A DNA stretch of 61,831 nt, taken from contig JBHPCE010000001.1 in the NCBI GenBank assembly GCA_042576345.1, positions 1 to 61,831 on the forward strand. Direction: 5' to 3'. The translations under genes and the position numbers were made by a program. Each line of letters opens with the position of its first letter. Position 1 is the first letter of the stretch. Below the pieces are notes generated by a model. The model ran no database searches. It worked only from the letters and a program-made list of their open reading frames with translations, and was not told the DNA's origin. Origin of the DNA: Candidatus Babelota bacterium. Lineage in GTDB: Bacteria; Babelota; Babeliae; Babelales; GCA-2401785. Below are positions 2,697-42,546 of the stretch, piece after piece.

Positions 2697-3314
2697 TTGT
2701 CAGTGACTCTAAAAATTAGCGAGCTAGAAGCTCTGTCGATATATGGTCTTAAAAATTTAACCAAATTAAAAATTGAGTCATTTGATTTCTCTTCTACAGA
2801 TTTTTATTGGGTAGTTTTTAGAGAAGATATGACTAAAAAGGGTGTAGCCCCTACCAATCTGGGTGTTGGATCTCTGCAGGATGAGTGGGAATGGCTTCAA
2901 GATATTTTTGATGATGAACAAATTGCCGTGACAATGGATTTCAACTACCTGGGGAGCCTTACCAGAACTATAAGCTATCTTATTTCCAATGGTTTGTTCT
3001 CTTCTAAGGCCTCAAATCAACAGTTCAACAAGCCTGTAAGAGTTGCGAAAATTCAAGATCTGTATGAAGCAATTTTTAAGAGTATTTTGGAATGTAGAAT
3101 TGAGGAAGTGGCTGTTGAGCATAATTTTTACTGGGTACTGGATATAGAAGATTCTTATTGTTTTGAAAAGATTCCAAAACCACGACAAAGGAAATTGACG
3201 GATGATATGAAATTCTTACGAGAGCAGATGAAAAACAAAAAAATGGATCACGACACTTTGGCTTTGTTTTTTGAGCGTCTTGGTAGCGTAATTAGGCTTG
3301 CAGATTTTCTTTAG
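2697..3314 (+). CDS. Paralog 3 of 3 (candidate immunity protein)
   Basis: It carries TDFYWVVF...GVGSLQDEWEWLQDIF plus a second module HNFYWVLDIED.... The GTG at 2703 sits 9 nt after GAGGA and may be the real start rather than the TTG at 2697. Confidence 0.7.
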   Translation: MSVTLKISELEALSIYGLKNLTKLKIESFDFSSTDFYWVVFREDMTKKGVAPTNLGVGSLQDEWEWLQDIFDDEQIAVTMDFNYLGSLTRTISYLISNGLFSSKASNQQFNKPVRVAKIQDLYEAIFKSILECRIEEVAVEHNFYWVLDIEDSYCFEKIPKPRQRKLTDDMKFLREQMKNKKMDHDTLALFFERLGSVIRLADFL

Positions 3315-3328
3315 AACTGAAAACGCTT

Positions 3329-4009
3329 CTAGCACCTGGACAAACTACCACCCTCCAGGTGATACACTTCATCCATCCGGTTCCACACCGTTTTGTCATG
3401 CGTACAAACTATTAAGCCATTTCCATGTTTTTCCTTGCCCCTTAGCAAAAGCTGGGTAATTTTTTCTGCGTTTTCCGCATCCAAGTTGCCTGTAGGCTCA
3501 TCTGCAAGAATGAATGAGGGAAGATTCATCATCGCCCGCACCAAGGCCACACGCTGTTGTTGTCCCCCAGAAAGTTGATTTGGAAAAAGGTCAATTTGCT
3601 TTTCAAGCCCAACTTCGCAGAGTAACTCCTTTGCTCTTCTGCTAGCATAATCCTCCTTGATTCCCCCAATTATTCCCGAAATAGCGGCGTTCTGGAGAAC
3701 TGACAGCTCACCAATCAGATAGTGAAACTGAAACATAAAGCCTATGGTTTTCCTCCTAAAATCGTTCACACTGTCTTCGCTCATCTTGAAAATGTCTTGC
3801 TCTCCAAGTTTAACCGTACCAGAGCTGGGATTGTCCAACCCTCCCAAAAGATGCATCAGTGTGGATTTTCCGCTTCCAGAAGCACCGGTTATAGCGTAAG
3901 ATCTTCCCTGCTCAAAAGAAACAGAAATGTCCTGCAAAACATTGGTCACTTTGCCACAATCTTGGACATAGGACTTTGAAAGGTTTTCCGCTGTGAGAGT
4001 TTGTTTCAT
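3329..4009 (-). CDS. ABC transporter ATP-binding protein, LolD/MacB/FtsE type
   Basis: Walker A is GASGSGKST, the signature is [14 protein letters not shown] and Walker B is [11 protein letters not shown]. The H-loop reads [20 protein letters not shown] resembles the LolD-type Q-loop region. Confidence 0.9.
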
Positions 4010-4584
4010 TTTTTTAACTTTTCTCTTTCTTCTATAAGTTTCTTATTTTCTATATACAATTCACGCCCCTTTTCATCCAAACGATTATTAAGTTCAGTAT
4101 ACATCTGGAGTAATTCACTGCTACGCAAAACTTCCTTTTTGAGGTCCTTACTTTTTTTTTCCCAATTACCAAATATCGAATCCCACCTTTTTACTATCCA
4201 ACCGCAATCACAAGATAAAGCCCTCGCTAAAAATAGTGGATAAGCAAAAAGCAAGACGACAAATGTAAAATACGAACAAAGAATCGTTTTAAAATGTACT
4301 TTGCTGATATCAATCTGCAAACGAGATTTATAATCGTCTGAATATCGATGCGAAAACCCAATGACTTTACCAAGATAATCTCTAAAACTAATCGTTTTAC
4401 CGGCCTTCTCACACTCCATTTTATATCCTTTAATCGCATAAAAAATTGTGAAACAAAGTGGAACAGGCATAAGACTGATCGCACACATTGTAGGCTTTCC
4501 ACAGCCCCCCATCAAGGGCATATTCAACATAGCAAAAAGTAAAAAAAAGGGCCAAACCAGCCTATAAATTCCACTGCAAACCAT
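4006..4584 (-). CDS. Membrane protein with a C-terminal coiled coil, paralog of 4587-5186
   Basis: It has roughly 3 hydrophobic segments followed by a K/E-rich helix ([50 protein letters not shown]). Its stop overlaps the ABC gene start by 4 nt. It shares ECxxAxKxxSFxxYL with the upstream ORF. Confidence 0.6.
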   Translation of the reverse strand: MVCSGIYRLVWPFFLLFAMLNMPLMGGCGKPTMCAISLMPVPLCFTIFYAIKGYKMECEKAGKTISFRDYLGKVIGFSHRYSDDYKSRLQIDISKVHFKTILCSYFTFVVLLFAYPLFLARALSCDCGWIVKRWDSIFGNWEKKSKDLKKEVLRSSELLQMYTELNNRLDEKGRELYIENKKLIEEREKLKK

Positions 4585-5422: not shown

Positions 5423-7789
5423 ATGGGGGTGATCATGAAGAACGAAGAAAAGGAAAGGGAAAAAGAAGCGATTCCCTGTACTCTTCCAGTAATTCCTACA
5501 GTCGACGTAGTCGTATTTCCACAAATGGTTGTTCCGCTTCTCGTACTCGACGAGAAAATCATTGGCGGAGTTTCAAGAGCGGCCGAAAACGACAAAAATG
5601 TACTGATAGTTGCAACCAAGGATCAGCCTGTTGGCTATGACGGCCCAATTGGCACACAAGATCTATTTAGCGTTGGAACCATCGGAAGGGTCTTGAGAGC
5701 AATGACACTTTCTGACGGGAGCATAAAAGTACTCGTTCAAGGAATCAGCCGAGCAAAAATCAAAAACATCACAACAGAAGGCGATGAACTCCAATCGGAA
5801 GTCGAAGAAGTTATATTTAACGTCTGCGAAGATAGAGAAGAAGAAGTCGAAATTAAAATGCGTGAAATGCTCGCCTATGTAGAACAGGTCGGCGAAAGAG
5901 TCCGCGACTATGGACGTGATTTTCAAGTCGTTATGTCGCAAATTCAAGATCCTGAGAGGCTCGTCGATTTTGTAATCTCTCACATGGGTGTCAGCGTCAA
6001 GCACTCACAAATCTTGCTCGAGAAAAATAATATCTTAGACTTACTGGACGGTGTTTTTGAGTTATTCAGAAATGAAGTTGAGCTCGCATCCGTTCAAGAA
6101 GACGTAAAAGTTACTGCCAGAGACTCCATCGACCGCTCACAGCGCGAGTACTTCCTCAAAGAACAGCTCAGAGCAATCCAAAAAGAGCTTGGTGAGTCGA
6201 GTGATTCAGAAAACGACGATTTAAAAGAAAAATTAAGAACGCTGCCATTGTCTGACGAAGCACGAGAAGAAGCTGAAAGGCAGCTGAGAAGATTGGAACA
6301 CACATCGCAAGACTCTCTTGAAGCCACTGTAATTCGAAACCACCTTGAATGGCTCTTTGGGATGCCATGGGGCGTTAAAACAGAAGATATTTGTGAGATA
6401 AAACATGCACAAACAATCTTGGACGAAGACCACTTTGGGCTTGAAAAAGTTAAAGACCGAATCTTAGATTACCTCTCAGTCCGCATGTTCCAGAACGAAT
6501 ACCACGCACCACTGCTCTGTTTAACCGGCCCTCCAGGGGTCGGTAAAACTTCTTTGGGCAAATCCGTTGCTCGCTGCTTAGGCCGAAAGTTTGTCAGAAT
6601 TTCTCTGGGTGGCGTTCATGATGAATCCGAAATACGAGGACACAGACGAACCTACGTAGGCGCTCTTCCTGGCCGAGTCGTTCAGTCCATGAGAAAAGCT
6701 GGCAGCATGAACCCAGTCTTGATGATCGACGAGGTCGACAAACTTGGTCAGTCAAACCGAGGAGATCCAGCTGCAGCGCTTTTAGAAGTTTTAGATCCAG
6801 AACAAAATTCAACATTTTATGACAACTACCTCGGCGTTCCGTTCGATCTTTCTCACGTCATGTTCATCGCAACTTCCAATGACGCCAGCTCAATCCCACC
6901 CGCTCTTCGTGACAGAATGGAAGTCATCGATCTTTCCGGATATTCCAAGCAGGAAAAAGTTCAAATCGCAACCGGGCACTTGGTAGGAAAAGCAATCAAA
7001 AACGCCGGGCTTGAAGAAAAAGGTATTGAATTTTCCGATGAACTTATTGGCGACATCATATCCAGCTATACGCGAGAGGCTGGGGTAAGAGAACTCGAAC
7101 GCTTCATCAGAAGAATATGCGCAAAATTTGCCAGATCCCTGGTTGAAAAAGGTGAAAAAGTAACGTTTACACACGACAACCTTCAACAATATCTTGGGCC
7201 AAGACGAATCCGGTGCGAAAAGGGCACTGGTGAGCGTAAGATTGGCGTTTGCAACGGCCTTGCATGGACACCATATGGAGGACAGGTTCTTCAAGTAGAA
7301 GCCGTTTTAATGCCCGGGCACGGAAAGCTTATTTTGACTGGACAACTTGGTGATGTAATGAAGGAATCAGCTCAAGCTGCCTTGAGCTACATCAGATCAC
7401 ACGCTGACAGATTTAAAATTGACGTCAACGCTTTTGAAGATTTCGACTTACACATACACCTACCTGCAGGTGCAATTCCAAAAGACGGGCCCTCTGCGGG
7501 CATCACACTCCTAGCATCTGTTCTGTCTGTCTTCACAAAAAGACCGCTGGACGGAACCTTTGCGATGACCGGCGAAGTTGATCTTCAAGGCACAATGCTT
7601 CCAATCGGCGGCCTTAAAGAGAAAGTTCTAGCAGCCAAGCAATATGGCGTCAAAACCGTGATTTTGCCAAAAGAAAATGAATGCGACGCGCAAGATGCCC
7701 TTAAATACGCCGAAGGCTTGGACCTGATGTTTGTCGAAAACGTTGAACAAGCATTGGACCGAATACTGCTTCCAGTTGAGAAATTTTAA
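5423..7789 (+). CDS. lon: ATP-dependent Lon protease (LonA), copy 1
   Basis: It has a LonA N-domain, Walker A GPPGVGKTS, Walker B VLMIDEVDK, the catalytic serine motif PKDGPSAGIT and a downstream GGLKEKVLAAK. An alternative start is the ATG at 5435, preceded by GGGGGTG. Confidence 0.95.
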   Translation: MGVIMKNEEKEREKEAIPCTLPVIPTVDVVVFPQMVVPLLVLDEKIIGGVSRAAENDKNVLIVATKDQPVGYDGPIGTQDLFSVGTIGRVLRAMTLSDGSIKVLVQGISRAKIKNITTEGDELQSEVEEVIFNVCEDREEEVEIKMREMLAYVEQVGERVRDYGRDFQVVMSQIQDPERLVDFVISHMGVSVKHSQILLEKNNILDLLDGVFELFRNEVELASVQEDVKVTARDSIDRSQREYFLKEQLRAIQKELGESSDSENDDLKEKLRTLPLSDEAREEAERQLRRLEHTSQDSLEATVIRNHLEWLFGMPWGVKTEDICEIKHAQTILDEDHFGLEKVKDRILDYLSVRMFQNEYHAPLLCLTGPPGVGKTSLGKSVARCLGRKFVRISLGGVHDESEIRGHRRTYVGALPGRVVQSMRKAGSMNPVLMIDEVDKLGQSNRGDPAAALLEVLDPEQNSTFYDNYLGVPFDLSHVMFIATSNDASSIPPALRDRMEVIDLSGYSKQEKVQIATGHLVGKAIKNAGLEEKGIEFSDELIGDIISSYTREAGVRELERFIRRICAKFARSLVEKGEKVTFTHDNLQQYLGPRRIRCEKGTGERKIGVCNGLAWTPYGGQVLQVEAVLMPGHGKLILTGQLGDVMKESAQAALSYIRSHADRFKIDVNAFEDFDLHIHLPAGAIPKDGPSAGITLLASVLSVFTKRPLDGTFAMTGEVDLQGTMLPIGGLKEKVLAAKQYGVKTVILPKENECDAQDALKYAEGLDLMFVENVEQALDRILLPVEKF

Positions 7790-8045: not shown

Positions 8046-8372
8046 ATTGAAAAAAATAAGTTTAAAACGCTGTCCCCTCAGCCTCCTGCAGGTGTAAATA
8101 CCTAAAGGTGCGCTACTATATCACCTGCTCAGGGCTGTTCTGAAATCAAAACAAAAAAAGCCCCCATAAAATGTTGCAGAATGCGTTTTTTTCACCTTTT
8201 CGCCCATTTTTAAACAAATTTGCAAAAACATTTTTTATAATATATCATAACCTCATGATGGTCTTTAAGAGGACCTGCAAAATGCAGCCTAAGTTGGATA
8301 GCTGCACTGCGAGACGGTCTCGCAACGGGGAAATGCCCCGAATGTATGTTTAATTAACCAAAAGAGAGGTTA

Positions 8373-9680
8373 ATGATGAAGAAAAATATATTGATAGTTC
8401 TTGCCATGGCGTTGTTTGCGGGCGGCGTGAGTTTTAGTGCTCATGCGAGTGACAACGTAGATCCTATGGTTAAAGCACTACAGGACGCTGGTTTTGGAAA
8501 GGGTGAATTAGAGGATTGGCAAAACTGTGATATAACAAGCTTAACTCATCTTAATTTATTCGAAGGAAAATCTTTTCACGAATATGCACAAACTGCCCAA
8601 GAAGCCGCAACCGTAGCTAAGAAACTGCAAGCCAAAGGAATTTCCAGTATGAGCCTTGACACAATTGTATCAATCGTTCATGGCAGAGATAGTCTTGATG
8701 CCGCAATAGAAAGACTCGCGAGCAAAAAAGAAAAAGAAGAAGAAGAAGAAGAGTACGATGATCTAAGCGATGACCATGGCGAAGGCCGCGGTGGTGACGA
8801 AGACGCTGTCGGCGGCGGTGATGGCTATGAAGGCGGCGGTGAAGGAGGCGGTGAAGGCGCTGTCGGTGAAGGCGGCGGTAAAGAAGACGACGATGCTGAC
8901 GACGGCCCCACAACCCCAAGATCTTCCTCACCAGACCAAGGCGTAGAAGGCGGCTACGAAGAAGGCGATGACTACGACGAAGAAGGCGGCGGCGGTGAAG
9001 GCTACGAGGAAGGTGGCTACGAGGAAGAAGGCTACGAAGAAGGCGGCAGAGATAACAACGTCGTATCTTGCCCAAACTGTGTTCATATGAACAATCCTGG
9101 ATCTACTGAATGCGCAAAATGCTTTAGCCCGCTTAGTAAACCAAACTACAATCTTTGCAGAAATTGTAAGCGATTTAGCAATTGCCAAGAAACTACATGT
9201 CCATTTTGTAATGGAACTCTAGATAAATATAATCCTCCAAAAGATTCCGGCGAACATCACGATGATGGCGACGATGACAAAACTGGATGGTTATGTACAA
9301 GCTGTTTTAAAATGAACACTATTCAAGCCAATGAATGCGCATACTGCCACCAACATATTAATCTAGGGTCCCAGGACAATGATTCCGACAAAGACTCTGG
9401 TCATTACTCAACCCTCACGCAACTGTTCTGGGCAGGAAAATATAATCTTGGAGCTGTAACAACAATTTCTGGCTCAGCAGCACTTGCTCTTTACATCGCT
9501 GCAAAAGTAGCTAAACACAGAGGCTGCAGCGCAAAAGTTGTAAAAACCTTGAAACAGCTTGCGATAGCTGGGGGCACATTGGGTGCTGGCGCATTTGTTT
9601 GGAACGGTGGAAGCATGTTGTTTGATAATCTATCGTCAGCTTGTGATAAAGACGAAAAAGCTCCAACTCCAATCAAATAA
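8373..9680 (+). CDS. Secreted acidic G/E/D-rich protein with RanBP2-type zinc fingers and a C-terminal hydrophobic hairpin
   Basis: The signal peptide reads MMKKNILIVLAMALFAGGVSFSAHA. CPNCVHMNNPGSTECAKC and WLCTSCFKMNTIQANECAYC fit (W)xCx2Cx3Nx6Cx2C. A third Cys4/5 ribbon is CRNCKRFSNCQETTCPFC. The RBS GAGAGG lies upstream. Confidence 0.8.
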   Translation: MMKKNILIVLAMALFAGGVSFSAHASDNVDPMVKALQDAGFGKGELEDWQNCDITSLTHLNLFEGKSFHEYAQTAQEAATVAKKLQAKGISSMSLDTIVSIVHGRDSLDAAIERLASKKEKEEEEEEYDDLSDDHGEGRGGDEDAVGGGDGYEGGGEGGGEGAVGEGGGKEDDDADDGPTTPRSSSPDQGVEGGYEEGDDYDEEGGGGEGYEEGGYEEEGYEEGGRDNNVVSCPNCVHMNNPGSTECAKCFSPLSKPNYNLCRNCKRFSNCQETTCPFCNGTLDKYNPPKDSGEHHDDGDDDKTGWLCTSCFKMNTIQANECAYCHQHINLGSQDNDSDKDSGHYSTLTQLFWAGKYNLGAVTTISGSAALALYIAAKVAKHRGCSAKVVKTLKQLAIAGGTLGAGAFVWNGGSMLFDNLSSACDKDEKAPTPIK

Positions 9681-9714
9681 TAATCTAGACAACGTTTAAA
9701 TTAACTTAAAACCG

Positions 9715-9737
9715 TGGGGGCGGATTTACCGGCCCCA
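9715..9737. terminator. Hairpin between convergent genes
   Basis: The sequence is tggggGcgg-attta-ccgGcccca with one G.G mismatch. It is followed by a T-rich stretch. Confidence 0.4.
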
Positions 9738-9741
9738 TCTC

Positions 9742-10788
9742 TTATTTTGTAGCTATGTACTCAAGAACGTCCAAGTTCCTTGGAAAAAAATCCTTATTTT
9801 TTCTGGATTCGCACCAAATTTTCTTTGTCTCATCACTCGAGCAACGCTCAATAAGCCCGTCTATCGAACAAAGAACATTTTCTGGAATAATTACCACTTT
9901 TGTCTTCCTTCCTGTGGTCATGTACACAACAGAAGCCGCAAAGAGACTTTCACTGTCGCACAATCCCTTAAGACAGGTTTTTTCAAGATGCGTAAAATTG
10001 AGCTGTATCGACAACTGCTTATTCTCAATTGATATCCCTCTTTTGCCTCCTTTAGCTTTCCAGCCTAAGTAATTGCACCCCGCAAGACTCCACAGAGCTT
10101 TGTTAAGCTCTATAAACTCATGTTCCATCCTGCCGACAACAGTTGTGTAATAATTTGTAACGCTTTTTAAAACTTCAAAAACCTGCCGCAACTCACTCAC
10201 ACTCAATAGTCTGGAATAACAATCTAGTTCGCGATTCTCACTTCTTGAAAAACTGGTTAAAATTCCAGGCATCAAAATAGCGGCAACGCCTCCTTTGTAC
10301 CTCAAAGATATTGTGAACGGCACTTCCCAACGAACGCTAAACCCAGTTTCCACTTCCTCGTGTGGCCAGGAAAAGTGGCAATAATTTGGAAACTCTTTTG
10401 TCAAAAACATCGAAAAAGTACGTTCGATAGGCGAATTCATGTACTCTGCGACAAGCTCACAAAGCTCTTCTGGAGAATCCTCCCAGGCGTTGTAAACAAT
10501 ATTTTTAAGTTCACAGCAGTTTCTTATCTCTCGCTGGTTAAGCTCTGTTGAAGAGATGGATACAGTGGTCAAAACGCCCAATAATGAAAATACAGATTTT
10601 AACCTCTTTGTCATCCCAGGCTTTGACCTGGGATCTAAACCGATTAATCCCAAATAATTTAACAGAAAATCTTGCTTAGAGCGGCATTCAGACTTTGTTT
10701 CCTTGATCATTTTTATCAAAAAACGGAATAGATCCCAGATCAAGTCTGGGATGACAGATTTGTCTAAAAACGACGCTAACAACTTCAT
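9742..10788 (-). CDS. Hypothetical protein whose annotated 5' end runs through a MITE
   Basis: The ORF of 348 aa has no recognisable motif. Residues 1-59 are a translation of MITE copy 2 (VIPDLIWDL, GLDPRSKPGM). A more likely start is the ATG at 10614, inside the MITE terminus gggATGaca, which gives MTKRLKSVFSLLGVLTTV.... Confidence 0.55.
   Translation of the reverse strand: MKLLASFLDKSVIPDLIWDLFRFLIKMIKETKSECRSKQDFLLNYLGLIGLDPRSKPGMTKRLKSVFSLLGVLTTVSISSTELNQREIRNCCELKNIVYNAWEDSPEELCELVAEYMNSPIERTFSMFLTKEFPNYCHFSWPHEEVETGFSVRWEVPFTISLRYKGGVAAILMPGILTSFSRSENRELDCYSRLLSVSELRQVFEVLKSVTNYYTTVVGRMEHEFIELNKALWSLAGCNYLGWKAKGGKRGISIENKQLSIQLNFTHLEKTCLKGLCDSESLFAASVVYMTTGRKTKVVIIPENVLCSIDGLIERCSSDETKKIWCESRKNKDFFPRNLDVLEYIATK
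10609..10756 (-). mobile_element. MITE copy 2 (shorter, inverted orientation)
   Basis: The termini are tgtcatcccaggctttgacctgggatc ... gatcccagatcaagtctgggatgaca. The internal sequence aligns to the reverse complement of copy 1. Confidence 0.8.
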
Positions 10789-18202: not shown

Positions 18203-20605
18203 TCACTTCTTTTTTGAAGAACTCTTTTTCGTTGCCACCTTTTTCTTTGAAAAGGGTGATTTTACCAAAGTTTCTTTTAAAACCTCGTCCATAGTTTTGA
18301 CATAAACAATTTTGATGTCGCCACCAAGCTCTTTTTCGAATTCCTTGATGTCATTTTTGTTTTCCTCTGGAACTATCACTGTTTCAAATCCCAGGCGTCT
18401 TGCAGCCAAAAGCTTTTCTCTTAAACCGCCCACAGGAAGCACTCTTCCGCGCAATGTAACTTCTCCAGTCATTGCAATTTTGTCTTTTACTGCAATTTTG
18501 GTCAAAACAGAAGCTATCGCCGCACCAATTGTTATACCAGCAGAAGGACCGTCTTTTGGAATTGCGCCTTCTGGAATATGAATGTGAATATCCGAGCCAG
18601 AATAAAAATCAGTTTTTACACCTAGTTCTTTTGCTATGGCCCTTATGTAACTGAGCGCAGCCTGGGCCGACTCGTGCATAACCTCTCCAAGCTGTCCTGT
18701 GACAGTTAACTCGCCCTTACCCTTGAAAAATGTAACTTCCACTTCTAAAACGTCGCCGCCAACCTCTGTCCAAGCAAGTCCAGTTGCAACGCCACAGACG
18801 CCTTTTGTGAAAGTATGATGTGCTTTAAAATGAGGAGCTCCAAGCCATTCTTCCAATTTTTTTTCTGTGATGACAACTTTCTTGGGAGGCTTTTCTCCAA
18901 TTAAAAGCTGAATTGCTTTTCTGTAAAGCTTTGCGATCAGTCTTTCCAACTGACGCACTCCAGCCTCTTTTGTGTACTCTTTGATAACTTTTTTGACAAT
19001 GGCATCAGAACATTGAACTTGAGCAGGTTTTAAATCGTATTGCTTCAAAAGTTTTGACATCAGATGCTTTGTTGCAATTTCTAACTTTTCCTCCTGTGTG
19101 TAGCCAGAAAGATAAACAATCTCCATCCTATCAAAAAGAGGAGCCGGAATGTGATCCATAACATTTGCGGTTGTTACAAAAAGAACCTTAGAAAGGTCAT
19201 ATTCAACTTCTACAAAGTGATCCACAAAGCCTTTATTTTGCTCGGGATCCAAAACTTCCAACAATGCCGATGCGGGGTCTCCCCTCATGTCCGAAGACAT
19301 CTTGTCCACTTCGTCAAGCAAAATAAGCGGATTGATAACTTTTGCTTTTTTCATTGCCTGGACAATTTTGCCAGGCATTGCACCTATGTAAGTTCTTCTA
19401 TGGCCGCGTATTTCCGCCTCATCTCTAACACCACCAAGTGAGATCCTGACGAACTTTCTACCCATCGCCTTGGCAATAGATGCGGCCAAAGAGGTTTTTC
19501 CAACACCAGGAGGGCCAACAAGGCAAATTATTGGCGCACGTTCAAGCTTTTCTCCAGCAAACTTTTTGGCCGCCAAAAACTCAATAATCCTTTCCTTGGC
19601 CTTCTTCATGCCAGAATGAGTGGAATCTAAAATTTCTTCTGCCTCAGCCAAGCCAACCTTGTCTTTTGTCTGCTTGTACCACGGCACAGAGGTCAGCCAG
19701 TCAACAAAATTGCGACTCACAGCCGCTTCCGGCGATGATGCAGGCATTTGCTCCAACCTTCGGCATTCCGAAAGTACTTTTTCCTTAGCCTCTTCTGGCA
19801 ACTTTAATTTTTTAACCTTTTTCCGCAAACTCTCTATTTCCTGAGTGATATCTTCTCGCCCAAGCTCACGCTGTATTGCCCGGATTTGCTCGTTGAGATA
19901 ATAATCGCGCTGATGTTTTTCGATCTGACTTTGAACTCTTTTGCGCACACTCTTTTCGGCCTTAAAAACCTCTATTTCGTTCTGAATTAAGGCACATAGA
20001 TGTATTGCTCTTTCTTTAACATCAAGCATTTCCAATAGATTTTGTTTTTCCTTAAAATCCATCTGAACATGAACAGCAACCGAATCGACCAGCGTTTCAA
20101 GATCACTTACAGATTTCAGCGGTGTTAAAGCATCCGGAGAAATTCTATCGTTGTAGGACACATATTCTTTGAATGACAGGAAAATGCGCCTTGAAAGGGC
20201 CTTACGCTCTGTAGCACTCTCCACACCAATAGACTCAACGTCTTGTACAACAGCGTCCAGATAATCTTCTGCATCACCCGGTTCTATGACCCGCGCGCGC
20301 CTAATTCCCTCGACCAAGAGCTTCATTGTGCCGTCTGCATCCTTTTTCATCTGCAAAATCACAGCACGAGTTCCATACTCATAAACATCAGAAACTTTGG
20401 GTCTGACAACCTCACTCAATTTTTGAGACGTCAAAAAGACAGCCCTATCACTCTTGAGCGCCTCTTCAACGGCTCTCACAGAGATATCGCGGCCCACTCG
20501 GACCGGCAAAATCCCCTTTGGGAGCGCCACAACGTTTTTTAGAGGCAAAATGGGAAGAAGCCTTCCCTGAAAAACTTGATCTTTTTTTTCTGCATCTTTA
20601 GGCAT
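18203..20605 (-). CDS. lon: ATP-dependent Lon protease (LonA), copy 2
   Basis: It carries GPPGVGKTS, LILLDEVDK, PKDGPSAGIT and GGLREKLLAARR. The RBS AAGGAA lies upstream. The C-terminal tail is K-rich. Confidence 0.95.
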   Translation of the reverse strand: MPKDAEKKDQVFQGRLLPILPLKNVVALPKGILPVRVGRDISVRAVEEALKSDRAVFLTSQKLSEVVRPKVSDVYEYGTRAVILQMKKDADGTMKLLVEGIRRARVIEPGDAEDYLDAVVQDVESIGVESATERKALSRRIFLSFKEYVSYNDRISPDALTPLKSVSDLETLVDSVAVHVQMDFKEKQNLLEMLDVKERAIHLCALIQNEIEVFKAEKSVRKRVQSQIEKHQRDYYLNEQIRAIQRELGREDITQEIESLRKKVKKLKLPEEAKEKVLSECRRLEQMPASSPEAAVSRNFVDWLTSVPWYKQTKDKVGLAEAEEILDSTHSGMKKAKERIIEFLAAKKFAGEKLERAPIICLVGPPGVGKTSLAASIAKAMGRKFVRISLGGVRDEAEIRGHRRTYIGAMPGKIVQAMKKAKVINPLILLDEVDKMSSDMRGDPASALLEVLDPEQNKGFVDHFVEVEYDLSKVLFVTTANVMDHIPAPLFDRMEIVYLSGYTQEEKLEIATKHLMSKLLKQYDLKPAQVQCSDAIVKKVIKEYTKEAGVRQLERLIAKLYRKAIQLLIGEKPPKKVVITEKKLEEWLGAPHFKAHHTFTKGVCGVATGLAWTEVGGDVLEVEVTFFKGKGELTVTGQLGEVMHESAQAALSYIRAIAKELGVKTDFYSGSDIHIHIPEGAIPKDGPSAGITIGAAIASVLTKIAVKDKIAMTGEVTLRGRVLPVGGLREKLLAARRLGFETVIVPEENKNDIKEFEKELGGDIKIVYVKTMDEVLKETLVKSPFSKKKVATKKSSSKKK

Positions 20606-21033: not shown

Positions 21034-22437
21034 ATGAACAATTATGGCCAAGAGAATGTAAGTCAAACTTCAAAACAAGGTTGGTTTAAGCATATTTGGC
21101 CATTCACAGGCGTTGAAAGCCAAAGAACCTTTTACTTCTCAGTTATCTTTTCATGTATCATTTTCTCTTATTCGATAATAAAACCACTCAAAGACACCAT
21201 TTTCATAGGCTTTATAGGCCCATCTTATCTTCCTTGGGCCAAACTTTTGATGCTGGCATCTCTGCCAATCTTCATGCCCCTTTATTCAGCCGCTGACAAC
21301 AAAGAAAAAAGAAATCGTGCGATAATGATTTTTAGTACATTCTACGGCCTAGTTTGCCTTATATTCGCCGTACTTTTCCTGAGTCCAACGATGGGCATTG
21401 CAAACACAGCAACCGGCCCAGGCAGAATTCTTGGATGGATTTTTTATGCAATAATGGATTTTTTCTCGATAGCAGTTGTTGCAACTTTTTGGGCCATGAT
21501 CAACTCTATCAGCACCCCAAACACGGCTAAAAAACAATATGGTATAATGGTTGCAGCCTCTAGAGGTCTTGGTGCGATAGCTGCCGGCCTTGGAACCGTC
21601 CTTACCTGGATAGGCATAAAAGACACAACATCTATCCCAACTATGATTGCTCTTGCCGGCATAAGCCTTGTTTTATGTACATTTTTAGCACACAAGATGT
21701 TTAAAAAGATCCCTCAAGATCACTTAAAAGGATACTCCGACGAACACGAAAAAGATAAAAGCAAATCATCAGTACCGAAAAACGCCTGGTCAAACCTAAA
21801 GACCCTTGTCACAAGGCCATATACATTTGGAATGTTCTGGCTTTTGTGTAGTTTTGAATTAATTTCTGCTTTGATGAACTACAGGATGCAATGCCTCATT
21901 GCACAATCTGCCAAAACAATCGGTGGAATCGGCAAGTTCATGTTTGCCTACACCTTTATTTTCCAAATTTTGGGACTTCTACTGGCTCTTTTTGGAACGA
22001 CAAAACTTCTCAAAAATTTTGGAGTCAGGTTCAGCCTTTTACTAACCCCGCTTATTGTTCTTTTACTCTCGTTCAGCCTAGTTTTCCTTAACAATTTGGC
22101 TGTGATAACAACATTAATGATATCGCTCAGAACACTTAACTACAGCCTTGATGTACCTGTTAAAGAAATATTATTTATCCCAACAACCCACAACATTCAA
22201 TATCAGGTTAAAGGCTGGATCGCATCTTTTGGAAAAACAATCTCAAAAACCACCGGTTCTTTGTTTAACGGCATAGCCGCAACTGCTTCTGCAAGAATTT
22301 TCTTGCGGACAGTAACGTATGCGCCCATTGTTTTAAGTTTTTTCTGGATTTTAACCGCCTTCATCGTTGGCAAAACATACAAAAAAGCTATAGATGCAGG
22401 AGCTGTGATCGGAGAAGACGACGTATCCACGGAGTGA
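21034..22437 (+). CDS. Tlc/NTT-family nucleotide transporter (ATP/ADP translocase-like), copy 1
   Basis: It is a polytopic protein of 467 aa. The N-terminal SIIKPLKDTIF corresponds to the LRSIKDGF box of Rickettsia Tlc. FWAMINSISTPNTAKKQYG corresponds to FWQFANQIT..EAKRFY. The C-terminal IP....KG.I..FGK...K..G box is also present. Confidence 0.65.
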   Translation: MNNYGQENVSQTSKQGWFKHIWPFTGVESQRTFYFSVIFSCIIFSYSIIKPLKDTIFIGFIGPSYLPWAKLLMLASLPIFMPLYSAADNKEKRNRAIMIFSTFYGLVCLIFAVLFLSPTMGIANTATGPGRILGWIFYAIMDFFSIAVVATFWAMINSISTPNTAKKQYGIMVAASRGLGAIAAGLGTVLTWIGIKDTTSIPTMIALAGISLVLCTFLAHKMFKKIPQDHLKGYSDEHEKDKSKSSVPKNAWSNLKTLVTRPYTFGMFWLLCSFELISALMNYRMQCLIAQSAKTIGGIGKFMFAYTFIFQILGLLLALFGTTKLLKNFGVRFSLLLTPLIVLLLSFSLVFLNNLAVITTLMISLRTLNYSLDVPVKEILFIPTTHNIQYQVKGWIASFGKTISKTTGSLFNGIAATASARIFLRTVTYAPIVLSFFWILTAFIVGKTYKKAIDAGAVIGEDDVSTE

Positions 22438-22515: not shown

Positions 22516-23898
22516 ATGATAATCAAGAGGATAACTGAGCTCATAAAAAAACTAAGATCTTTAGACAAAGAAACTGCTAAAAAAATAATTTATCTCTCAT
22601 CAATTTATGCCCTTCTGATCTTCACATATTCCACCATCAGGCCAATTAAAGACGCCATATTCCTGGCAATGGTCGGAGCAAAGTTCCAACCAATTGCAAA
22701 ACTTGCAGTGATGGCCTTTTCGCCATTTTTTATAATTTTCTACTCAGCCATTGTCACAAGGATGAACCGAAAAAGGGCTTCTATGTCGCTCATAGGCGGA
22801 TATGCTGCCGCCTGCATCGCCCTTTCCTTAGCGTGCCTTCACCCTGTCCTTGGTATTTTGAACACTATAACGTCGCCATTCAGAATTTTAGGTTGGACAG
22901 CATACGCACTATTTGACATGTATCCTTTGGCCGTTATGACTTGTTTTTGGGCCCTTACAAGCTCAATCAGCACGCCAGACAAAGCCAGCACCCAATACGG
23001 CATAATGTCTGCCACATCAAGATTGGGCGGAATAATTGCATCAGGTTTTGGTTACATCGTAATGAAAAGTTCAATGCCAGTATATGCCACAATACCCGCA
23101 CTTACAGCGCTTTCTGGAACAATGCTTTTTGCAACCACTCTTCTGATCAAATCTATGTTCAAAAACATAAACAAAGAAAATCTAAAAGGTTACACTGATC
23201 AGAAAGCTGGATCGCCAACCAAAAGAAAAAAACCCGGTCTCTTAGAAGGTCTCAAGGCTGTTGTCAGAGAACCTTACGCATTCGGGATATTCACAATATT
23301 TTGTTCTTACGAGCTTATTTCAGCACTGGCAACGTTTAGAACTCAATGTTTGATCACGGCCCAGACGGCTCATTCAATGCAAAAAATAGGTTCCTACGTT
23401 TTTGGATACACTTTTATTTTCCAATCAATCGGCTTTTTCATAGCTCTTTTTGGAACAACCACTTTGCCAAAAAAACTTGGTATGAAAATCAGCCTTCTCA
23501 TAACACCAGCAATATTATTTATCTTTTCAGCAGCTCTTATCGGCAACCTAAATTTATACTCTTTGACCGCAATGATGATCGCCATGAAGGCCTTAAATTA
23601 CGGTTTTAACATACCGGTACGTGAAATGCTCTTCATCCCAACAAGCCGAAACATCCAGTTTATGGCAAAGGGCTGGATCGACTCATTCGGAAAAACCTTC
23701 AGTAAAGCCACAGGATCTGTAATGAACTTGGCTTCGACAATGCCACACCTATCTTCCCTTTCCGTAATGCTCGCGCCCATATCTCTAGCAATCAGCGCAG
23801 TCTGGGGCATCATCGCAATGGCTCTTGGAAACAAGTTCCAAAATGCGGTCAAAAAATCAGAGGTTATAGGACAAAAACAGCCAAAAAAGACACATTGA
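22516..23898 (+). CDS. Tlc/NTT-family nucleotide transporter, copy 2
   Basis: It is a paralog of the preceding gene (STIRPIKDAIF, FWALTSSISTPDKASTQYG, FIPTSRNIQFMAKGWIDSFGKTFSKATGS). Confidence 0.65.
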   Translation: MIIKRITELIKKLRSLDKETAKKIIYLSSIYALLIFTYSTIRPIKDAIFLAMVGAKFQPIAKLAVMAFSPFFIIFYSAIVTRMNRKRASMSLIGGYAAACIALSLACLHPVLGILNTITSPFRILGWTAYALFDMYPLAVMTCFWALTSSISTPDKASTQYGIMSATSRLGGIIASGFGYIVMKSSMPVYATIPALTALSGTMLFATTLLIKSMFKNINKENLKGYTDQKAGSPTKRKKPGLLEGLKAVVREPYAFGIFTIFCSYELISALATFRTQCLITAQTAHSMQKIGSYVFGYTFIFQSIGFFIALFGTTTLPKKLGMKISLLITPAILFIFSAALIGNLNLYSLTAMMIAMKALNYGFNIPVREMLFIPTSRNIQFMAKGWIDSFGKTFSKATGSVMNLASTMPHLSSLSVMLAPISLAISAVWGIIAMALGNKFQNAVKKSEVIGQKQPKKTH

Positions 23899-31705: not shown

Positions 31706-33160
31706 ATGAACAGAAGCGTAACGCGCTTGCTCGCAGCCGCGCTCTTAGTCAGTACTGCGGCTATCGCGGGATCGAAGACGGAAACAAACCGTCCCTTTAT
31801 AAACACAAAGGACTTCAGAAACAGAGTGGAATCATTAACAATATTCCACAAAGCTCTGGCTTACGAGTCAGACAAGTTAATCGGCGGCAATGTACAAGTT
31901 GTGCCATTTTATCTTCAACAAAAAGATTCATCACGAGATGAACTTGGTAAGGGTTTCGGTGTAGACCACCTACAAAACATTATATTCGATGATGCAACGG
32001 GAATTGCTGCCGCACCCTCTACCAATGGCTACGTGGATGCTGGTTATCTAATTCACGAGGAAGACAGCTCCACAGACGGTACTGCATACAGCAAACTAGA
32101 AATAAAACCGAGACACAAAGCATATGGTGTAAACGTCGACTACTGCCACAAACTAGACGAACTTGCAGATGGACTGTGGTTCAGAGTTTGCACAGGTCTT
32201 GTAAAAGTAGAACATTTACTTGGCCTTACATGGGCTTCAGAAGCACAGGTTGACACAACACACCCATATGTTTCTCAATACCTTGATGGCTCCACAGAAA
32301 CTACCGACGCTGCCGACTTAACTAAACTACTAACACACGGCAAGATGGATGGTGAAACTAGAGATGAGTCGGGTTTCAACGACGTTGAAGCAATGATTGG
32401 CTGGAACTTCGTTGAAAAAGACAATGCAAAAATGGCTCTTTCAGTCGGAATTGTAATTCCAACAGGTAACGAGCCAACAGCAGAATATCGTTTTGAACCT
32501 CTGTACGGCACACGCCACTTCCAATTTGGCGTTGGTCTTACAGGTTGTGGCACACTGTGGGAAAAAGACGAAAACAAATTTAAAGCTGTTTTCGATGCCC
32601 ACTACAGGTATGCATTTGAGCGTGAAGTAAAACGTTTGGTTGGTATTAAAGACACCGATTATGGCTTTTACTATCTCCTACAACAAACAGGCGCTGCAGC
32701 TGCGACAAAACTTATTCCTGCTGCCAACTTGCTGGCAATGGATCTTAAGGTAACACCTGGAAGCTCCTTTGATGGTACAGCAATGCTAACCTTCTGCTCC
32801 AAGTGGTTTGTAGTTGATGCTGGTTACAACTTTTATGGTTGCCAATCACAAAAACCAACCATAAAAGACTGGACAGACGACACCTACTACAAAGTAGATA
32901 AGGCGTACGATACAAGTGCAACATGGGCAACAAACGCCTCAGCACTTCAAGGTACAGCAATTAACAAAACCAATCTCGACAAAGACATCGACAGCCAGAT
33001 GATCCACAAAGTCTTTGCTGCGGCAGGCGTTGTAACCACCGAATGGGATTATCCTGTAACATTCGGAATTGGTGGTTCAATAGAGTTTGTCCAAGGAGCT
33101 AAGAAGCAAATTACACCTGCCAACTACGAAGTATTTGGCAAAGTTGGAATTTCCTTCTAG
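31706..33160 (+). CDS. Putative outer-membrane beta-barrel protein (porin-like), paralog 1
   Basis: The signal peptide reads MNRSVTRLLAAALLVSTAAIAG. The sequence is rich in aromatic/Gly alternation. It ends in a C-terminal Phe (FGKVGISF). Confidence 0.6.
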   Translation: MNRSVTRLLAAALLVSTAAIAGSKTETNRPFINTKDFRNRVESLTIFHKALAYESDKLIGGNVQVVPFYLQQKDSSRDELGKGFGVDHLQNIIFDDATGIAAAPSTNGYVDAGYLIHEEDSSTDGTAYSKLEIKPRHKAYGVNVDYCHKLDELADGLWFRVCTGLVKVEHLLGLTWASEAQVDTTHPYVSQYLDGSTETTDAADLTKLLTHGKMDGETRDESGFNDVEAMIGWNFVEKDNAKMALSVGIVIPTGNEPTAEYRFEPLYGTRHFQFGVGLTGCGTLWEKDENKFKAVFDAHYRYAFEREVKRLVGIKDTDYGFYYLLQQTGAAAATKLIPAANLLAMDLKVTPGSSFDGTAMLTFCSKWFVVDAGYNFYGCQSQKPTIKDWTDDTYYKVDKAYDTSATWATNASALQGTAINKTNLDKDIDSQMIHKVFAAAGVVTTEWDYPVTFGIGGSIEFVQGAKKQITPANYEVFGKVGISF

Positions 33161-33675: not shown

Positions 33676-35148
33676 ATGAACCGATCAATTTCGCGTTTGC
33701 TCGCGTCCGTGCTCATCGTAAGCTGTGCTTTCGTAGCAAATGCAGTAACAAGCTCGGAAACAAATAGCACCATGTTAAGACTAAGGGATTATCGTAACCG
33801 TGCCGAAATGGCAACAATATTTCACAAAGCAGTTGAACTTAAATCAGATGATAGAGCAAATGGCAACTTAGAAATCATGCCATTCTATCGTCAAACATAT
33901 CACAGGGATAAACTCGGTAAAGGTATTGGTGTAAACCACAAAAACACATTCACAATCAAAGACACAGCTGTTGGAACAGGCGTTGCAACTGCACCTGTAT
34001 CAGGGGCAGACGTCAACGGTGCATACTTAATTCACAAATTGGATGCTGCTGGTAGCTCATACTACACAACAGTAAACCTAAAACCAAAACACTATGCATT
34101 CGGTGCAAACATCGACTTCTTCATGAACCTAGACAACCTTGTAGAAGGTCTGTACTTTGACGTGAATACAGCTATTGCCAAAGCATACAACAAAGTTGGA
34201 TTGATTCTTAGCAGCACACAAAACGTTGCTACATATCCAACATGGGAAACCTACTTTACAGGAGCAGCTGGAACAGTCGCCAACAACGAACAAAATGCTC
34301 TTGCTAAAGCAAAACTGAACTATGACAGCTATGTAGATAAAGGCGGAGTTGAAGATCCAGAACTCTTGATCGGCTACAATTTTGTAGACAACGATTCAGG
34401 AAAAGTAAGCGTAAACGTCGGAGCTTCTATTCCAACAGGCACAGACCCAACACGCGAATACACATTTGAGCCTCTTGTAGGTAGCCGCCACTTCAAGCTT
34501 GGCCTTGGCCTTAAAGCTTGCGCCAATCTATGGGAAAGCGAAAAGGAAGGTGGAACAAAACAAGAGCTTAAAGCCGTGTTCGACCTCAACTATCGTTATG
34601 CCTTCAAACGCGACATGTTGTTAACTCCACGTCTCAAAGTTAATGGCACAGCAACACAATGGGGTCACTACTACCTCATAGGTGAAATTACAGCAGCAAG
34701 CACCACAGCATTCGATCCTGCAGCAAACATCATCACACTTACCTATGAAGTAAAACCAGGCAACATGTTTGATGGAAACGCCTTGCTTTCATACAGTCAT
34801 GGATGCTTTGTTGGAGACCTTGGTGTAGCAGTTGAATTTAAAGAGTCACACACACCAACACTAAAAAGCTCATGGGATGACACCAAATATGGTGTAGCAT
34901 ATGACGATTCAAGTCTTGCATCAGATGCCTTCACAACATCCGAGAGCGTTGCATTGCTTAAGGCTCACTTTGATCCAAAAATCGAAAGCATGTGCCTATT
35001 CAAAGTCTTTGCAGCAGCTGGTGCAGTTATGACCGACTGGGATTATCCTGTCACCTTCGGCGTTGGTGCTGACGTTGACATCGCAAGCAAACAGCAGATC
35101 ACTCCAGAAAACTGGAAGGTCTTCGGCAAGGTCGGCATTACCTTTTAA
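33676..35148 (+). CDS. Putative outer-membrane beta-barrel protein (porin-like), paralog 2
   Basis: It begins MNRSISRLLASVLIVSCAFVANA and ends FGKVGITF. It shares blocks with paralog 1 (NLEIMPFY, GAYLIH, EPL.G.RHF.LG.GL, KVFAAAG.V.T.WDYPVTFG.G). Confidence 0.6.
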   Translation: MNRSISRLLASVLIVSCAFVANAVTSSETNSTMLRLRDYRNRAEMATIFHKAVELKSDDRANGNLEIMPFYRQTYHRDKLGKGIGVNHKNTFTIKDTAVGTGVATAPVSGADVNGAYLIHKLDAAGSSYYTTVNLKPKHYAFGANIDFFMNLDNLVEGLYFDVNTAIAKAYNKVGLILSSTQNVATYPTWETYFTGAAGTVANNEQNALAKAKLNYDSYVDKGGVEDPELLIGYNFVDNDSGKVSVNVGASIPTGTDPTREYTFEPLVGSRHFKLGLGLKACANLWESEKEGGTKQELKAVFDLNYRYAFKRDMLLTPRLKVNGTATQWGHYYLIGEITAASTTAFDPAANIITLTYEVKPGNMFDGNALLSYSHGCFVGDLGVAVEFKESHTPTLKSSWDDTKYGVAYDDSSLASDAFTTSESVALLKAHFDPKIESMCLFKVFAAAGAVMTDWDYPVTFGVGADVDIASKQQITPENWKVFGKVGITF

Positions 35149-42400: not shown

Positions 42401-42546
42401 TTGTTCGTCAACTGGCACCGTGGAAAAACCCCGTCAGTGCGGTATGTCTAGCATCTATGATTACTTGTATTGCAGCTGAGTTTTTCCCCAAAAACTCATT
42501 CAATAGCCCAAGATATACCCCTCAGTTATCCGATACAAAGGCCTAA
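39430..42546 (+). CDS. Large secreted/membrane protein with a Cys-rich N-terminal region, a K-rich region, a P/E-rich spacer, DEPAVVP tandem repeats and a C-terminal hydrophobic hairpin
   Basis: The ORF is 1038 aa with an N-terminal hydrophobic segment. Cysteines are dense between about aa 29 and 185. The spacer reads EPEPEPEPEPEH..., followed by 11 DEPAVVP units. Confidence 0.75.
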   Translation: MLQFYFIRKFIPVLCVYFLASTFIFKQQCYCTDDIVEVAECLCGCARDMCTDGCCQVKDCIGSCTSCSCGGCSFDYCGGCEKDCGAFCSGCSGFCSGIGSCFKCECGDGIGGICSGCWDCAAGGRTDHYWRSDNLDVQGALTTYSNFEQASNMVHQAAACCQLCGLAACGLASCCSSCSCRSCSGPSKPVEHKPMPKKQKKEFKKTVKTLKKMDKKAREIMPQWLRAYSMDKSKLLRKMDKSKLLRKAEDKLQHFIATYGLNKYSGLALFRATYKALQHSPPTKDDYGSLWSKLAGSIDRRFGIHSLPSETRTFHTASDILSKHRFGYHKHLRDQLIGSKTPCGLSPYTQTGKQICEKLHLLGPIQATNEQEEQIEAEPKELKEEDKHGTEGAPHTQPKRYLTSTKLTQMLAAKQIAKAVIDGRKIKKKNIKKLEHSAGSVTTTALNTVLDQMMNHNLTDKTTKPNNYLEVATKLLPGVNPEIFTANWCIKRLKEIKDSASRNNSLCQMLGKIFDYCIEKMGSESGLEDSKIRLEASKIKLKVRWSSTNNGDHVDEQLEPTYPMPSCKQRSKWEECFYPMPELWYLMPSYFAGKQRDYIKDGIEQAVVMAMQPDGGVQNSIFERIFLFSLFPRWLEPVAFLTKGKPQPRELGPMFTKFRDKSFKFMEKYEDPKLANTPFLLTVMKSARQVARFHDPTKEKSVNDAMIQALKRIIKPQESYIRKQLFESILPPKEAPDEPEPEPEPEPEHEPKPEPEPEKEPEPERKQQAALPVVSDEPAVVPDEPAVVPDEPVVPDEPAVVPDEPAVVPDEPAVVPDEPAVVPDEPAVVPDEPAVVPDEPAVVSDEPAVVPDEPEPKPEPATTPKKGKKKWQRLAFLLKAGLKATATAQETNTNRTETGSSTTQSELAATIDTPDIEAPKTNKTQTTSCHTDSTAVKLKTFISKPNVAVAFVGGAALTTHSICLFNNAIKIATTTLGMRPNEAFKYAIKKLVRQLAPWKNPVSAVCLASMITCIAAEFFPKNSFNSPRYTPQLSDTKA
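40117..40170 (+). repeat. Perfect 27-bp tandem duplication (MDKSKLLRK x2)
   Basis: The unit atggataaaagcaaactgttacgtaag occurs twice in tandem. Confidence 0.9.
41755..41982 (+). repeat. In-frame 21-bp tandem repeat array (11 units, one of them 18 bp)
   Basis: The unit is gacgagcctgctgtagttcca (DEPAVVP). The units are nearly identical; one lacks gct and one has ttt for ttc. Confidence 0.95.

Follow-up and report, generated by a model that had tools for sequence, protein, structure and literature searches.

Three Cys4 zinc ribbons behind a predicted signal peptide in an orphan Dependentiae protein: probable kinship with bacterial DZR modules and a sub-threshold likeness to RanBP2 fingers

Is a zinc finger that carries the RanBP2 cysteine pattern a eukaryotic element when it is found in a bacterial protein that appears to be exported? 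This question is raised by an open reading frame (ORF) of 435 amino acids (aa), counted from its first Met, which lies at positions 8373-9680 of the plus strand in contig JBHPCE010000001.1 of a Candidatus Babelota bacterium; the whole stretch of DNA analysed, 61,831 nucleotides (nt) in length, is called the window below. According to the ORF list all three cysteine-rich fingers (F1, F2 and F3) are housed in this single frame. A preliminary description of the sequence had assigned two of them to the eukaryotic RanBP2/NZF consensus and had proposed a host-directed effector. Profiles do not support RanBP2 membership of the fingers, which are indistinguishable from bacterial DZR ribbons. F1-F2 shows kinship with DZR modules of bacteria in which two hydrophobic stretches come after the ribbons, and its membership in DZR itself is probable.

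The codon of Cys233 starts at nt 9069 and that of Cys325 ends at nt 9347, so that the interval 9069-9347 named in the preliminary description has the outermost cysteines as its exact ends. Three units are located within it.

9069-9122, plus strand: zinc ribbon 1 (F1), residues 233-250, CPNCVHMNNPGSTECAKC, first half of a DZR-like double ribbon.
9156-9209, plus strand: zinc ribbon 2 (F2), residues 262-279, CRNCKRFSNCQETTCPFC, with five Cys, second half of the DZR-like double ribbon and followed by a conserved Y-N-P.
9288-9347, plus strand: zinc ribbon 3 (F3), residues 306-325, WLCTSCFKMNTIQANECAYC, the sole finger with the full RanBP2 signature in a regular-expression search.

The spacing C-x2-C-x10-C-x2-C is identical in F1, F2 and F3. 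An Asn at position +4 is present in F1 and F3 and a Trp at position -2 in F3 alone, while F2 has neither the Trp nor an Asn in register. In RanBP2-type fingers a single zinc is enclosed by two beta-hairpins at right angles to each other, and the Trp packs against the core. Their signature, W-x-C-x(2,4)-C-x3-N-x6-C-x2-C (PMC12383448), is passed by one of the three fingers, F3, because only this finger carries the Trp at -2. The motif fits described before are therefore correct as such: F3 agrees exactly, F1 lacks the Trp alone, and the third Cys-ribbon placed between the two others is F2. When the whole protein was shuffled, at least three Cys4 motifs were obtained in 0 of 20000 permutations, and shuffling of the 102-aa Cys-rich segment gave at least three in 52 of 20000 (0.26%). 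Thus, the observation of three motifs is real and non-random. The CAYCH sequence (CXXCH) in F3 was also considered as a haem attachment site and rejected, as Cytochrom_c3_2 gave an expectation value (E) of 0.22 and a regular Cys4 unit has CAYCH as its second knuckle.

The cores of F3 and F1 share 8 of 18 residues (44%), and the alignment of F3 to F1 takes in the acidic leader of each. A duplicate origin of F3 is the simpler reading, and F3 is probably an internal duplicate in which the Trp at -2 coincides by chance with the RanBP2 signature. This Trp is the only RanBP2-specific feature of the protein.

A search with the zf-RanBP profile, by which the preliminary description had proposed to check its assignment, did not yield a significant match. 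With PF00641, the Pfam family now named 'Zn_ribbon_RanBP', no match was obtained at E≤10 for the whole protein or for the 93-aa finger region, and none for F1 or F2 when these were tested singly. F3 alone reached 12.8 bits (E=0.072), which is below the gathering score of 27. The best family was PF12773 (DZR) with 21.0 bits and E=3.8e-4 over residues 233-280, covering all 45 model positions. This score does not reach the formal cut-off (gathering score 27.3), and membership is therefore probable rather than formal. F1 alone scored 19.3 bits with DZR, 14.6 with Zn_Ribbon_1 and 13.7 with Zn_ribbon_3; F2 alone gave no relevant Pfam match.

Bacterial relatives served as a control. They were collected by an exhaustive phmmer search (HMMER) with residues 223-435 against 1.84 billion representative proteins. 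Beyond the protein itself, the only matches were P0002, P0003 and P0004 (E from 8.7e-5 to 8e-4), all on F1-F2, and zero eukaryotic or RanBP2-type proteins were found at E≤1e-3. Two of these, P0002 and P0003, are small proteins from bacteria that carry a double ribbon at an N-terminus without a signal peptide and have two hydrophobic stretches after it. Their identity to the target protein amounts to 32-34% over about 65 residues, and every Cys, the Asn and the Y-x-P past the second ribbon are held in common; Cys, Tyr and Pro are invariant at F2 in the alignment with both. P0003 (29.2 bits) and P0004 (31.9 bits) exceed the DZR gathering score, so that the nearest relatives are bona fide members of this family.

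The same bacterial proteins bear on the label 'eukaryotic consensus' that had been given to the fingers. The core C-x2-C-x3-N-x6-C-x2-C is found identically in the bacterial DZR proteins P0003 and P0004 (CPNCGEMNGESNDKCYKC, CPSCAEQNRPGSAQCARC, CPSCRELNHEGTARCARC); it is therefore a pattern common to the zinc-ribbon clan and no eukaryotic hallmark, and it is on this label that the preliminary description is weakest. On PF00641 the bacterial DZR protein P0004 even reached 16.6 bits, which is more than the 12.8 bits of F3. A profile built from the bacterial fingers only had a RanBP2-type finger of RBM10 as its best match in the PDB (E=0.034), and after addition of the target fingers to this profile E fell to about 1e-3, with MDM2, Mdm4, RanBP2 and TAB3 joining the matches. 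Such sub-threshold likeness to RanBP2 is general among bacterial zinc ribbons and is thus no evidence of eukaryotic origin.

Comparison with solved structures did bring out a likeness to RanBP2-type fingers, though a weak one. For F1 the best match in the PDB was the Npl4 NZF (E=0.12). The list for F3 was led by Nup153 (E=0.015), with RanBP2, TAB2-NZF, ZRANB2 and MDM2 fingers at E between 0.15 and 0.65 and with the ribbons of ribosomal eL40 and Rpb12 interleaved; RanBP2-type fingers account for 7 of the 10 best matches of F3 (Nup153 with three entries, RanBP2, TAB2, ZRANB2, MDM2). The residues used by such fingers for binding are replaced. Binding of ubiquitin by NZF fingers critically needs a Thr-Phe pair right after the first Cys pair (PMC12383448). 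In the alignment this pair is absent, C-T-F-M-N of Npl4 corresponding to C-V-H-M-N in F1 and C-F-K-M-N in F3, and the Leu-Val of the Nup153 fingers is changed to Phe-Lys in F3. On this basis canonical NZF-mode ubiquitin binding by the fingers appears unlikely. RNA-binding fingers of the ZRANB2/FUS type have an aromatic residue after the conserved Asn and, in the second hairpin, Arg residues that contact GGU. Set against this motif, neither F3 (N-T-I-Q-A-N-E) nor F1 (N-N-P-G-S-T-E) contains Asn-Phe/Trp...Arg. The literature yielded no description of bacterial effectors with zf-RanBP domains.

Structure models were consistent with zinc ribbons and did not discriminate between the families. An AlphaFold2 (AF2) model of the whole protein, computed without an alignment, had a mean predicted local distance difference test (pLDDT) score of 44.8 and left the fingers unmodelled (pLDDT about 30); a Foldseek search with this model returned meaningless output and was discarded. 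For the finger region alone, modelled with a four-row alignment, the mean pLDDT was 56.8, with 55-73 over F1-F2 (best values of 68-73 over F2 and the hairpins) and 53-55 over F3. This model, which contains no zinc, shows short strands and beta-hairpins. Its Foldseek overlaps with eL40, Nop10, aIF2-gamma and the adenylate kinase lid were local (root mean square deviation 0.7-2 Å over about 30 residues), and none was significant.

The remainder of the gene and protein comprises the following features.

8364-8369, plus strand: ribosome-binding site GAGAGG, read directly from the sequence, 3 nt upstream of the ATG at 8373 and 6 nt upstream of the ATG at 8376.
8373-9680, plus strand: complete ORF of an orphan modular protein, 435 aa.
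8373-8447, plus strand: predicted Sec-type signal peptide, residues 1-25, with n-region MMKKN, 16-residue h-region ILIVLAMALFAGGVSF and c-region SAHA, cleavage being predicted before SD.
8448-8726, plus strand: N-terminal helical domain of about 93 aa, residues 26-118, suggested by a weak AF2 single-sequence model and matching no family.
8727-9056, plus strand: residues 119-228, a low-complexity spacer of Gly, Glu, Asp and Tyr that is acidic (net charge -38) and disordered according to AF2.
9447-9503, plus strand: hydrophobic segment 1, LGAVTTISGSAALALYIAA, residues 359-377, moderate, with a Kyte-Doolittle (KD) 19-residue peak of 1.59 and an AF2 helix at 359-382 (pLDDT about 65-71).
9504-9557, plus strand: basic loop of 18 residues, KVAKHRGCSAKVVKTLKQ, with 6 Lys/Arg and 1 His and zero acidic residues.
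9558-9623, plus strand: hydrophobic segment 2, LAIAGGTLGAGAFVWNGGSMLF, residues 396-417, weak and Gly/Ala-rich, with AF2 helices at 387-402 and 406-411.

In the gene call of the sequence collection (P0001) translation starts at the second ATG, 8376, giving 434 aa. This start agrees with the position of GAGAGG and is likelier than the ATG at 8373. The protein is an orphan. A word-indexed homologue search with the full-length protein against 5.8 billion clusters returned the self match alone, its candidates being swamped by the acidic repeat; the same type of search with residues 223-435 and a scan of the GTDB species genomes with the protein gave no match. Among the 1.84 billion representatives no homologue of the full-length protein or of its C-terminal half was detected, and the window holds no paralogue. 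The base composition of the ORF resembles that of its surroundings (G+C of the window about 40%), and an Rfam scan of the window found zero RNA families. Between the stop codon and the end of a convergent 348-aa orphan gene (9742-10788, minus strand) an imperfect GC-rich hairpin is present at 9714-9737 (TGGGGGCGG-ATTTA-CCGGCCCCA). It may be a terminator common to both genes, and was not flagged by a consensus terminator scan because it is without a T-tail.

The N-terminus shows the features of Sec export when judged by eye and by hydropathy, namely Lys/Arg in the n-region, an h-region within the range of 10-16 residues and an A-x-A site, and its KD 19-residue peak is 1.99 (residues 6-24). The signal peptide and the long acidic G/E/D region of the preliminary description are both recovered at this level, the former by MMKKN / ILIVLAMALFAGGVSF / SAHA and the KD peak, the latter as residues 119-228 with their net charge of -38. 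In the helical head AF2 places helices at residues 29-38, 43-49, 68-87, 95-102 and 108-129, with pLDDT of 60-79 solely at residues 70-130; Pfam gave no match for it and the PDB no meaningful one. A UBA-like or HeH-like three-helix motif had been suspected there from 'KKLQAKGIS...SLDAAIERL' and was dropped, since Pfam had no match and the best PDB match was a de novo designed protein, followed by flagellins. The spacer consists of 34 Gly, 27 Glu and 17 Asp among other residues and is built of tandem repeats with units of 12 nt (8828-8883) and 15 nt (8945-9047). The latter stretch encodes EGYEEGGYEEEGYEEGG, an acidic repeat that we take to resemble the Glu/Gly/Tyr-rich C-terminal tail of alpha-tubulin.

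The membrane hairpin that had been placed behind the fingers is borne out only in part: segment 359-377 peaks at KD 1.59, and in segment 396-417 every 19-residue window stays below 1.0 (about 0.95 by hand count). A hairpin is plausible but weak on these hydropathy values. The C-terminal 104 aa gave no Pfam match. The net charge of region 353-415 is +7, and by the positive-inside rule the basic loop is predicted to be cytoplasmic. Together with a cleaved signal peptide this rule places residues 26-358, and with them the fingers, outside the cytoplasm in the predicted topology.

The organism is, as far as its protein sequences tell, a novel member of Dependentiae (TM6, Babeliales). This follows from the second of two Lon proteases in the window (Lon2), which is 81% identical to the Lon of a 'Candidatus Babeliales bacterium' and 60-71% identical to many Lons of Babeliales, Dependentiae and candidate division TM6, and from the window proteins checked, which all stand alone at 90% identity except for two 57-aa fragments clustered with a 505-aa Mur-ligase-family protein. 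Besides the two Lon proteases the window encodes two nucleotide transporters of the TLC family, NupC and many ORFs without a family. Cultured Dependentiae live inside protists as parasites. Signal peptides are found on 44% of the coding sequences of Chromulinavorax destructans, a set enriched in ORFans and ankyrin proteins that are regarded as effectors; its cells lie free in the cytoplasm of the host and release vesicles (PMC6561590). For secretion across TM6, only type II components are reported as conserved in the available part of another study, which does not mention type III or type IV systems (PMC4776705). Signal-peptide-like N-termini were seen in about 14 of 45 ORFs of the window.

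The target gene lies downstream of Lon1. The nearest Lon1 orthologues, in the metagenomic sequences L016 and L017, are 55-56% identical; no target orthologue was present around them, other genes being found downstream. In L016, the closest metagenomic relative, the position 3' of the Lon1 orthologue (6162-6686, plus strand) is taken by a 174-aa protein with a signal peptide and ankyrin repeats (Ank_2, E=2.9e-7), and both L016 and L017 have, downstream of Lon1 on the opposite strand, a small unrelated ORF whose N-terminus is hydrophobic. With such differing genes the slot 3' of Lon1 looks like a variable one that holds lineage-specific exported-type proteins. A GTDB scan with Lon1 returned only chance-pattern matches of about 40% identity from unrelated phyla. 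In the relatives' Lon2 surroundings the target locus is not kept despite the adjacency of TLC and Lon genes.

What the protein does can be answered with graded confidence. The reading that we favour, with our judgement about evenly divided between trust and doubt, is that of a lineage-specific, Sec-exported and tethered zinc-ribbon binding scaffold which probably faces the host. From the N-terminus onward it would consist of a cleavable signal peptide, about 90 aa of helical head, about 110 aa of acidic spacer made of repeats, three Cys4 ribbons and, last, a hairpin of weak hydrophobicity whose loop is strongly basic. A module consisting of DZR and two hydrophobic segments would have been fused behind an exported N-terminal region comprising the signal peptide, the head and an expanding acidic spacer, and this fusion would turn the ribbons outward, away from the cytoplasmic side. 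Once exported through Sec, the protein would be retained by its hairpin of low hydrophobicity or inserted through it later, and ribbons, spacer and head would be displayed toward the host, whose reducing cytosol would permit zinc binding; the protein could then serve as a tethered scaffold that binds a host macromolecule. DZRs are normally located on the cytoplasmic side, and Cys4 ribbons require a reducing milieu. This need and the weak hydrophobicity of the hairpin are the reasons for favouring a host-facing scaffold over a purely periplasmic role. The transmembrane segments of effector membrane proteins are reportedly less hydrophobic. Such proteins combine an export signal with transmembrane segments, as stated in the available part of PMC6110835. 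The earlier idea of a host-directed effector plausibly fits its context, namely a Dependentiae genome, an ORFan with a signal peptide and a variable locus.

Several points weigh against this reading. The DZR score remains at 21.0 against a cut-off of 27.3 and the assignment depends on three matches with E around 1e-4, while F3 is unmatched by bacterial zinc-ribbon models and its nearest solved structures are mostly eukaryotic and RanBP2-type. The structure models have low confidence (pLDDT 44.8 and 56.8), and signal peptide and topology were judged from inspection and hydropathy alone. As nearly half of the Dependentiae proteins have predicted signal peptides, this feature discriminates poorly, and we know of no demonstrated route from the periplasm to host membranes in Dependentiae. 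A true inner-membrane hairpin would keep the protein in the envelope, and the twelve clustered cysteines might then form disulfides and not zinc sites.

The last point leads to the explanation that comes next in weight, a bacterial envelope protein without a host target, anchored in the inner membrane by the hairpin and facing the periplasm, with the cysteines as disulfides or a metal buffer and the acidic repeats binding cations. We consider this doubtful, though a serious possibility. The signal peptide and the basic loop do predict an inner-membrane topology with the N-terminus out, the loop in and the C-terminus out; signal peptides are very common in the phylum, ordinary membrane proteins included, as in the window itself, and periplasmic folding factors (SurA-like, a peptidyl-prolyl isomerase (PPIase) and two HtrA-like proteases) are encoded there too. 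Nevertheless, Cys4 ribbons of DZR spacing normally bind their zinc in the cytoplasm, and the ribbons of the nearest relatives lie at an N-terminus that has no signal peptide. The hairpin is also weakly hydrophobic for a stable inner-membrane anchor, and an orphan in a variable locus would be unusual for envelope housekeeping. Far less probable is a non-functional frame, either an ORF that arose by chance or a degenerating fusion in which repeats have expanded and which serves no selected function. It would account for a singleton that has no homologue and of which a quarter is slippage-prone repeat. It would, however, leave unexplained an intact 1.3-kb ORF with a ribosome-binding site and the base composition of its surroundings, which encodes a signal peptide of canonical form as well as three Cys4 units, all intact and with perfectly conserved spacing (0 of 20000 shuffles).

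True RanBP2/NZF fingers, acquired from a host or convergent, would turn the protein into a membrane-tethered effector whose ligands are ubiquitin chains of the host, RanGDP or single-stranded RNA. The exact signature of F3 and the 7 RanBP2-type fingers among its 10 best PDB matches speak for this, as do the ubiquitin-binding Npl4 NZF as the best match of F1, the host-dependent lifestyle and other eukaryote-like exported proteins of the window, such as one with a SET domain. But F3 attains 12.8 of the 27 bits needed on PF00641, F1 and F2 have no match, and the bacterial P0004 stands higher at 16.6; at E≤1e-3 the exhaustive search returned neither eukaryotic proteins nor any of RanBP2 type. Thr-Phe is replaced by VH in F1 and FK in F3, where FK also takes the place of Leu-Val of Nup153, and the PDB matches all have E of at least 0.015 in a database biased to eukaryotic fingers. 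We therefore regard true RanBP2/NZF fingers as unlikely. A related proposal is that the ribbons, Sec-exported and membrane-tethered, recognise ubiquitin chains, Ran or RNA in the host cytosol after the manner of RanBP2/NZF fingers, which we consider rather improbable. If it were true, the protein would be the first bacterial effector on this finger type, and also a case in which a DZR module from the bacterial cytoplasm had been turned inside-out and put to new use against a eukaryotic host.

With regard to known systems, the bacterial DZR proteins (PF12773; zinc_ribbon PF13240/PF13248; P0002, P0003) resemble the protein in two consecutive C-x2-C-x10-C-x2-C units, the Asn at +4, the Y-x-P and the downstream hydrophobic pair. 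The protein differs from them by its signal peptide, helical head, 110-aa acidic repeat spacer and third ribbon, by ribbons that are predicted outside the cytoplasm whereas theirs are inside, and by a Pfam score below the gathering threshold. Eukaryotic RanBP2/NZF fingers (Nup153, RanBP2, Npl4, TAB2, ZRANB2, MDM2) share the zinc-ribbon fold class, the cysteine spacing and, in F3, Trp and Asn; unlike these, the protein is bacterial, is below the threshold of the hidden Markov model, lies behind a Sec signal peptide and lacks Thr-Phe as well as the Leu-Val of Nup153. Candidate effectors of Dependentiae (Chromulinavorax, Babela) are alike in coming from intracellular TM6 bacteria and in being ORFans with a Sec signal peptide and a repeat-rich module of the protein-interaction type, but those described are mainly ankyrin-repeat proteins, proteases and nucleases. 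In the available parts of PMC6561590 and PMC4776705 zinc is mentioned solely with a zinc transporter. Chlamydial Inc proteins and Legionella type IV secretion effectors with transmembrane domains have paired modest hydrophobic segments and a soluble domain that faces the host cytosol, according to the available parts of PMC6110835 and PMC12981334. These use type III or type IV secretion signals without Sec signal peptides, whereas the present protein is of Sec type with a C-terminal hairpin and a long, strongly basic loop. In a comparison with the bilobed Inc pattern its lobes reach KD 1.59 and less than 1.0, with the 18-residue basic loop between them.

Other genes of the window were recorded in passing. 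Two Lon-type ORFs lie about 10 kb apart, Lon1 at 5423-7789 (plus strand) and Lon2 at 18203-20605 (minus strand); Lon2 has the full Pfam architecture of Lon, and Lon1 is Lon-like by tblastn. The TLC genes form a tandem pair of divergent sequence at 21034-22437 and 22516-23898 (plus strand, E about 1e-15), which adjoins Lon2 in divergent orientation, and this TLC-Lon adjacency is kept in two related Dependentiae contigs; a TLC gene of L014 lies at 2807-4183. Two ORFs of about 485 aa each at 31706-33160 and 33676-35148 (plus strand), without a Pfam family and with near-identical signal-peptide-like N-termini (MNRSVTRLLAAALLVS and MNRSISRLLASVLIVS), probably represent a pair of tandem paralogues from an orphan family of exported proteins. 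The ORF at 39430-42546 (plus strand) encodes 1038 aa with 46 cysteines and has dense Cys blocks near a hydrophobic N-terminus (e.g. CTSCSCGGCSFDYCGGCEKDCGAFCSGC) and no Pfam family. At 52196-53731 and 53775-55472 (minus strand) tandem HtrA/DegP-like serine proteases with Trypsin_2 and PDZ domains are encoded, at least the first of which is signal-peptide-like; further periplasmic folding factors in the window are the SurA-like protein and the PPIase. A 465-aa ORF at 58091-59488 (plus strand) combines a signal-peptide-like N-terminus with pentapeptide repeats (PF00805, E=3e-27). Finally, the SET-domain ORF at 59845-60672 (minus strand) encodes 275 aa with the signal-peptide-like N-terminus MKVYSQRFLTMLVTLMGFYSFCALAGG and a match to PF00856 (E=4.5e-19). 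Going by this profile match, its domain is a bona fide eukaryote-like domain of the histone-methyltransferase type, and the ORF is a stronger effector candidate than the zinc-ribbon protein.

What is new in the zinc-ribbon protein is its architecture, a zinc-ribbon/DZR protein that is at the same time a Dependentiae signal-peptide ORFan. By the core signature of RanBP2, with or without the Trp, eukaryotic fingers are not told apart from the zinc ribbons that are common in bacteria; calls of 'eukaryote-like zinc fingers' in bacteria that are made from motifs alone should therefore be backed by profile searches and controls. Provided that the exported topology is real, a DZR module would be displayed outside the cytoplasm by a TM6 bacterium of obligate intracellular life, and the protein would be a concrete effector candidate in a phylum whose manipulation of the host is barely known beyond ankyrin repeats.

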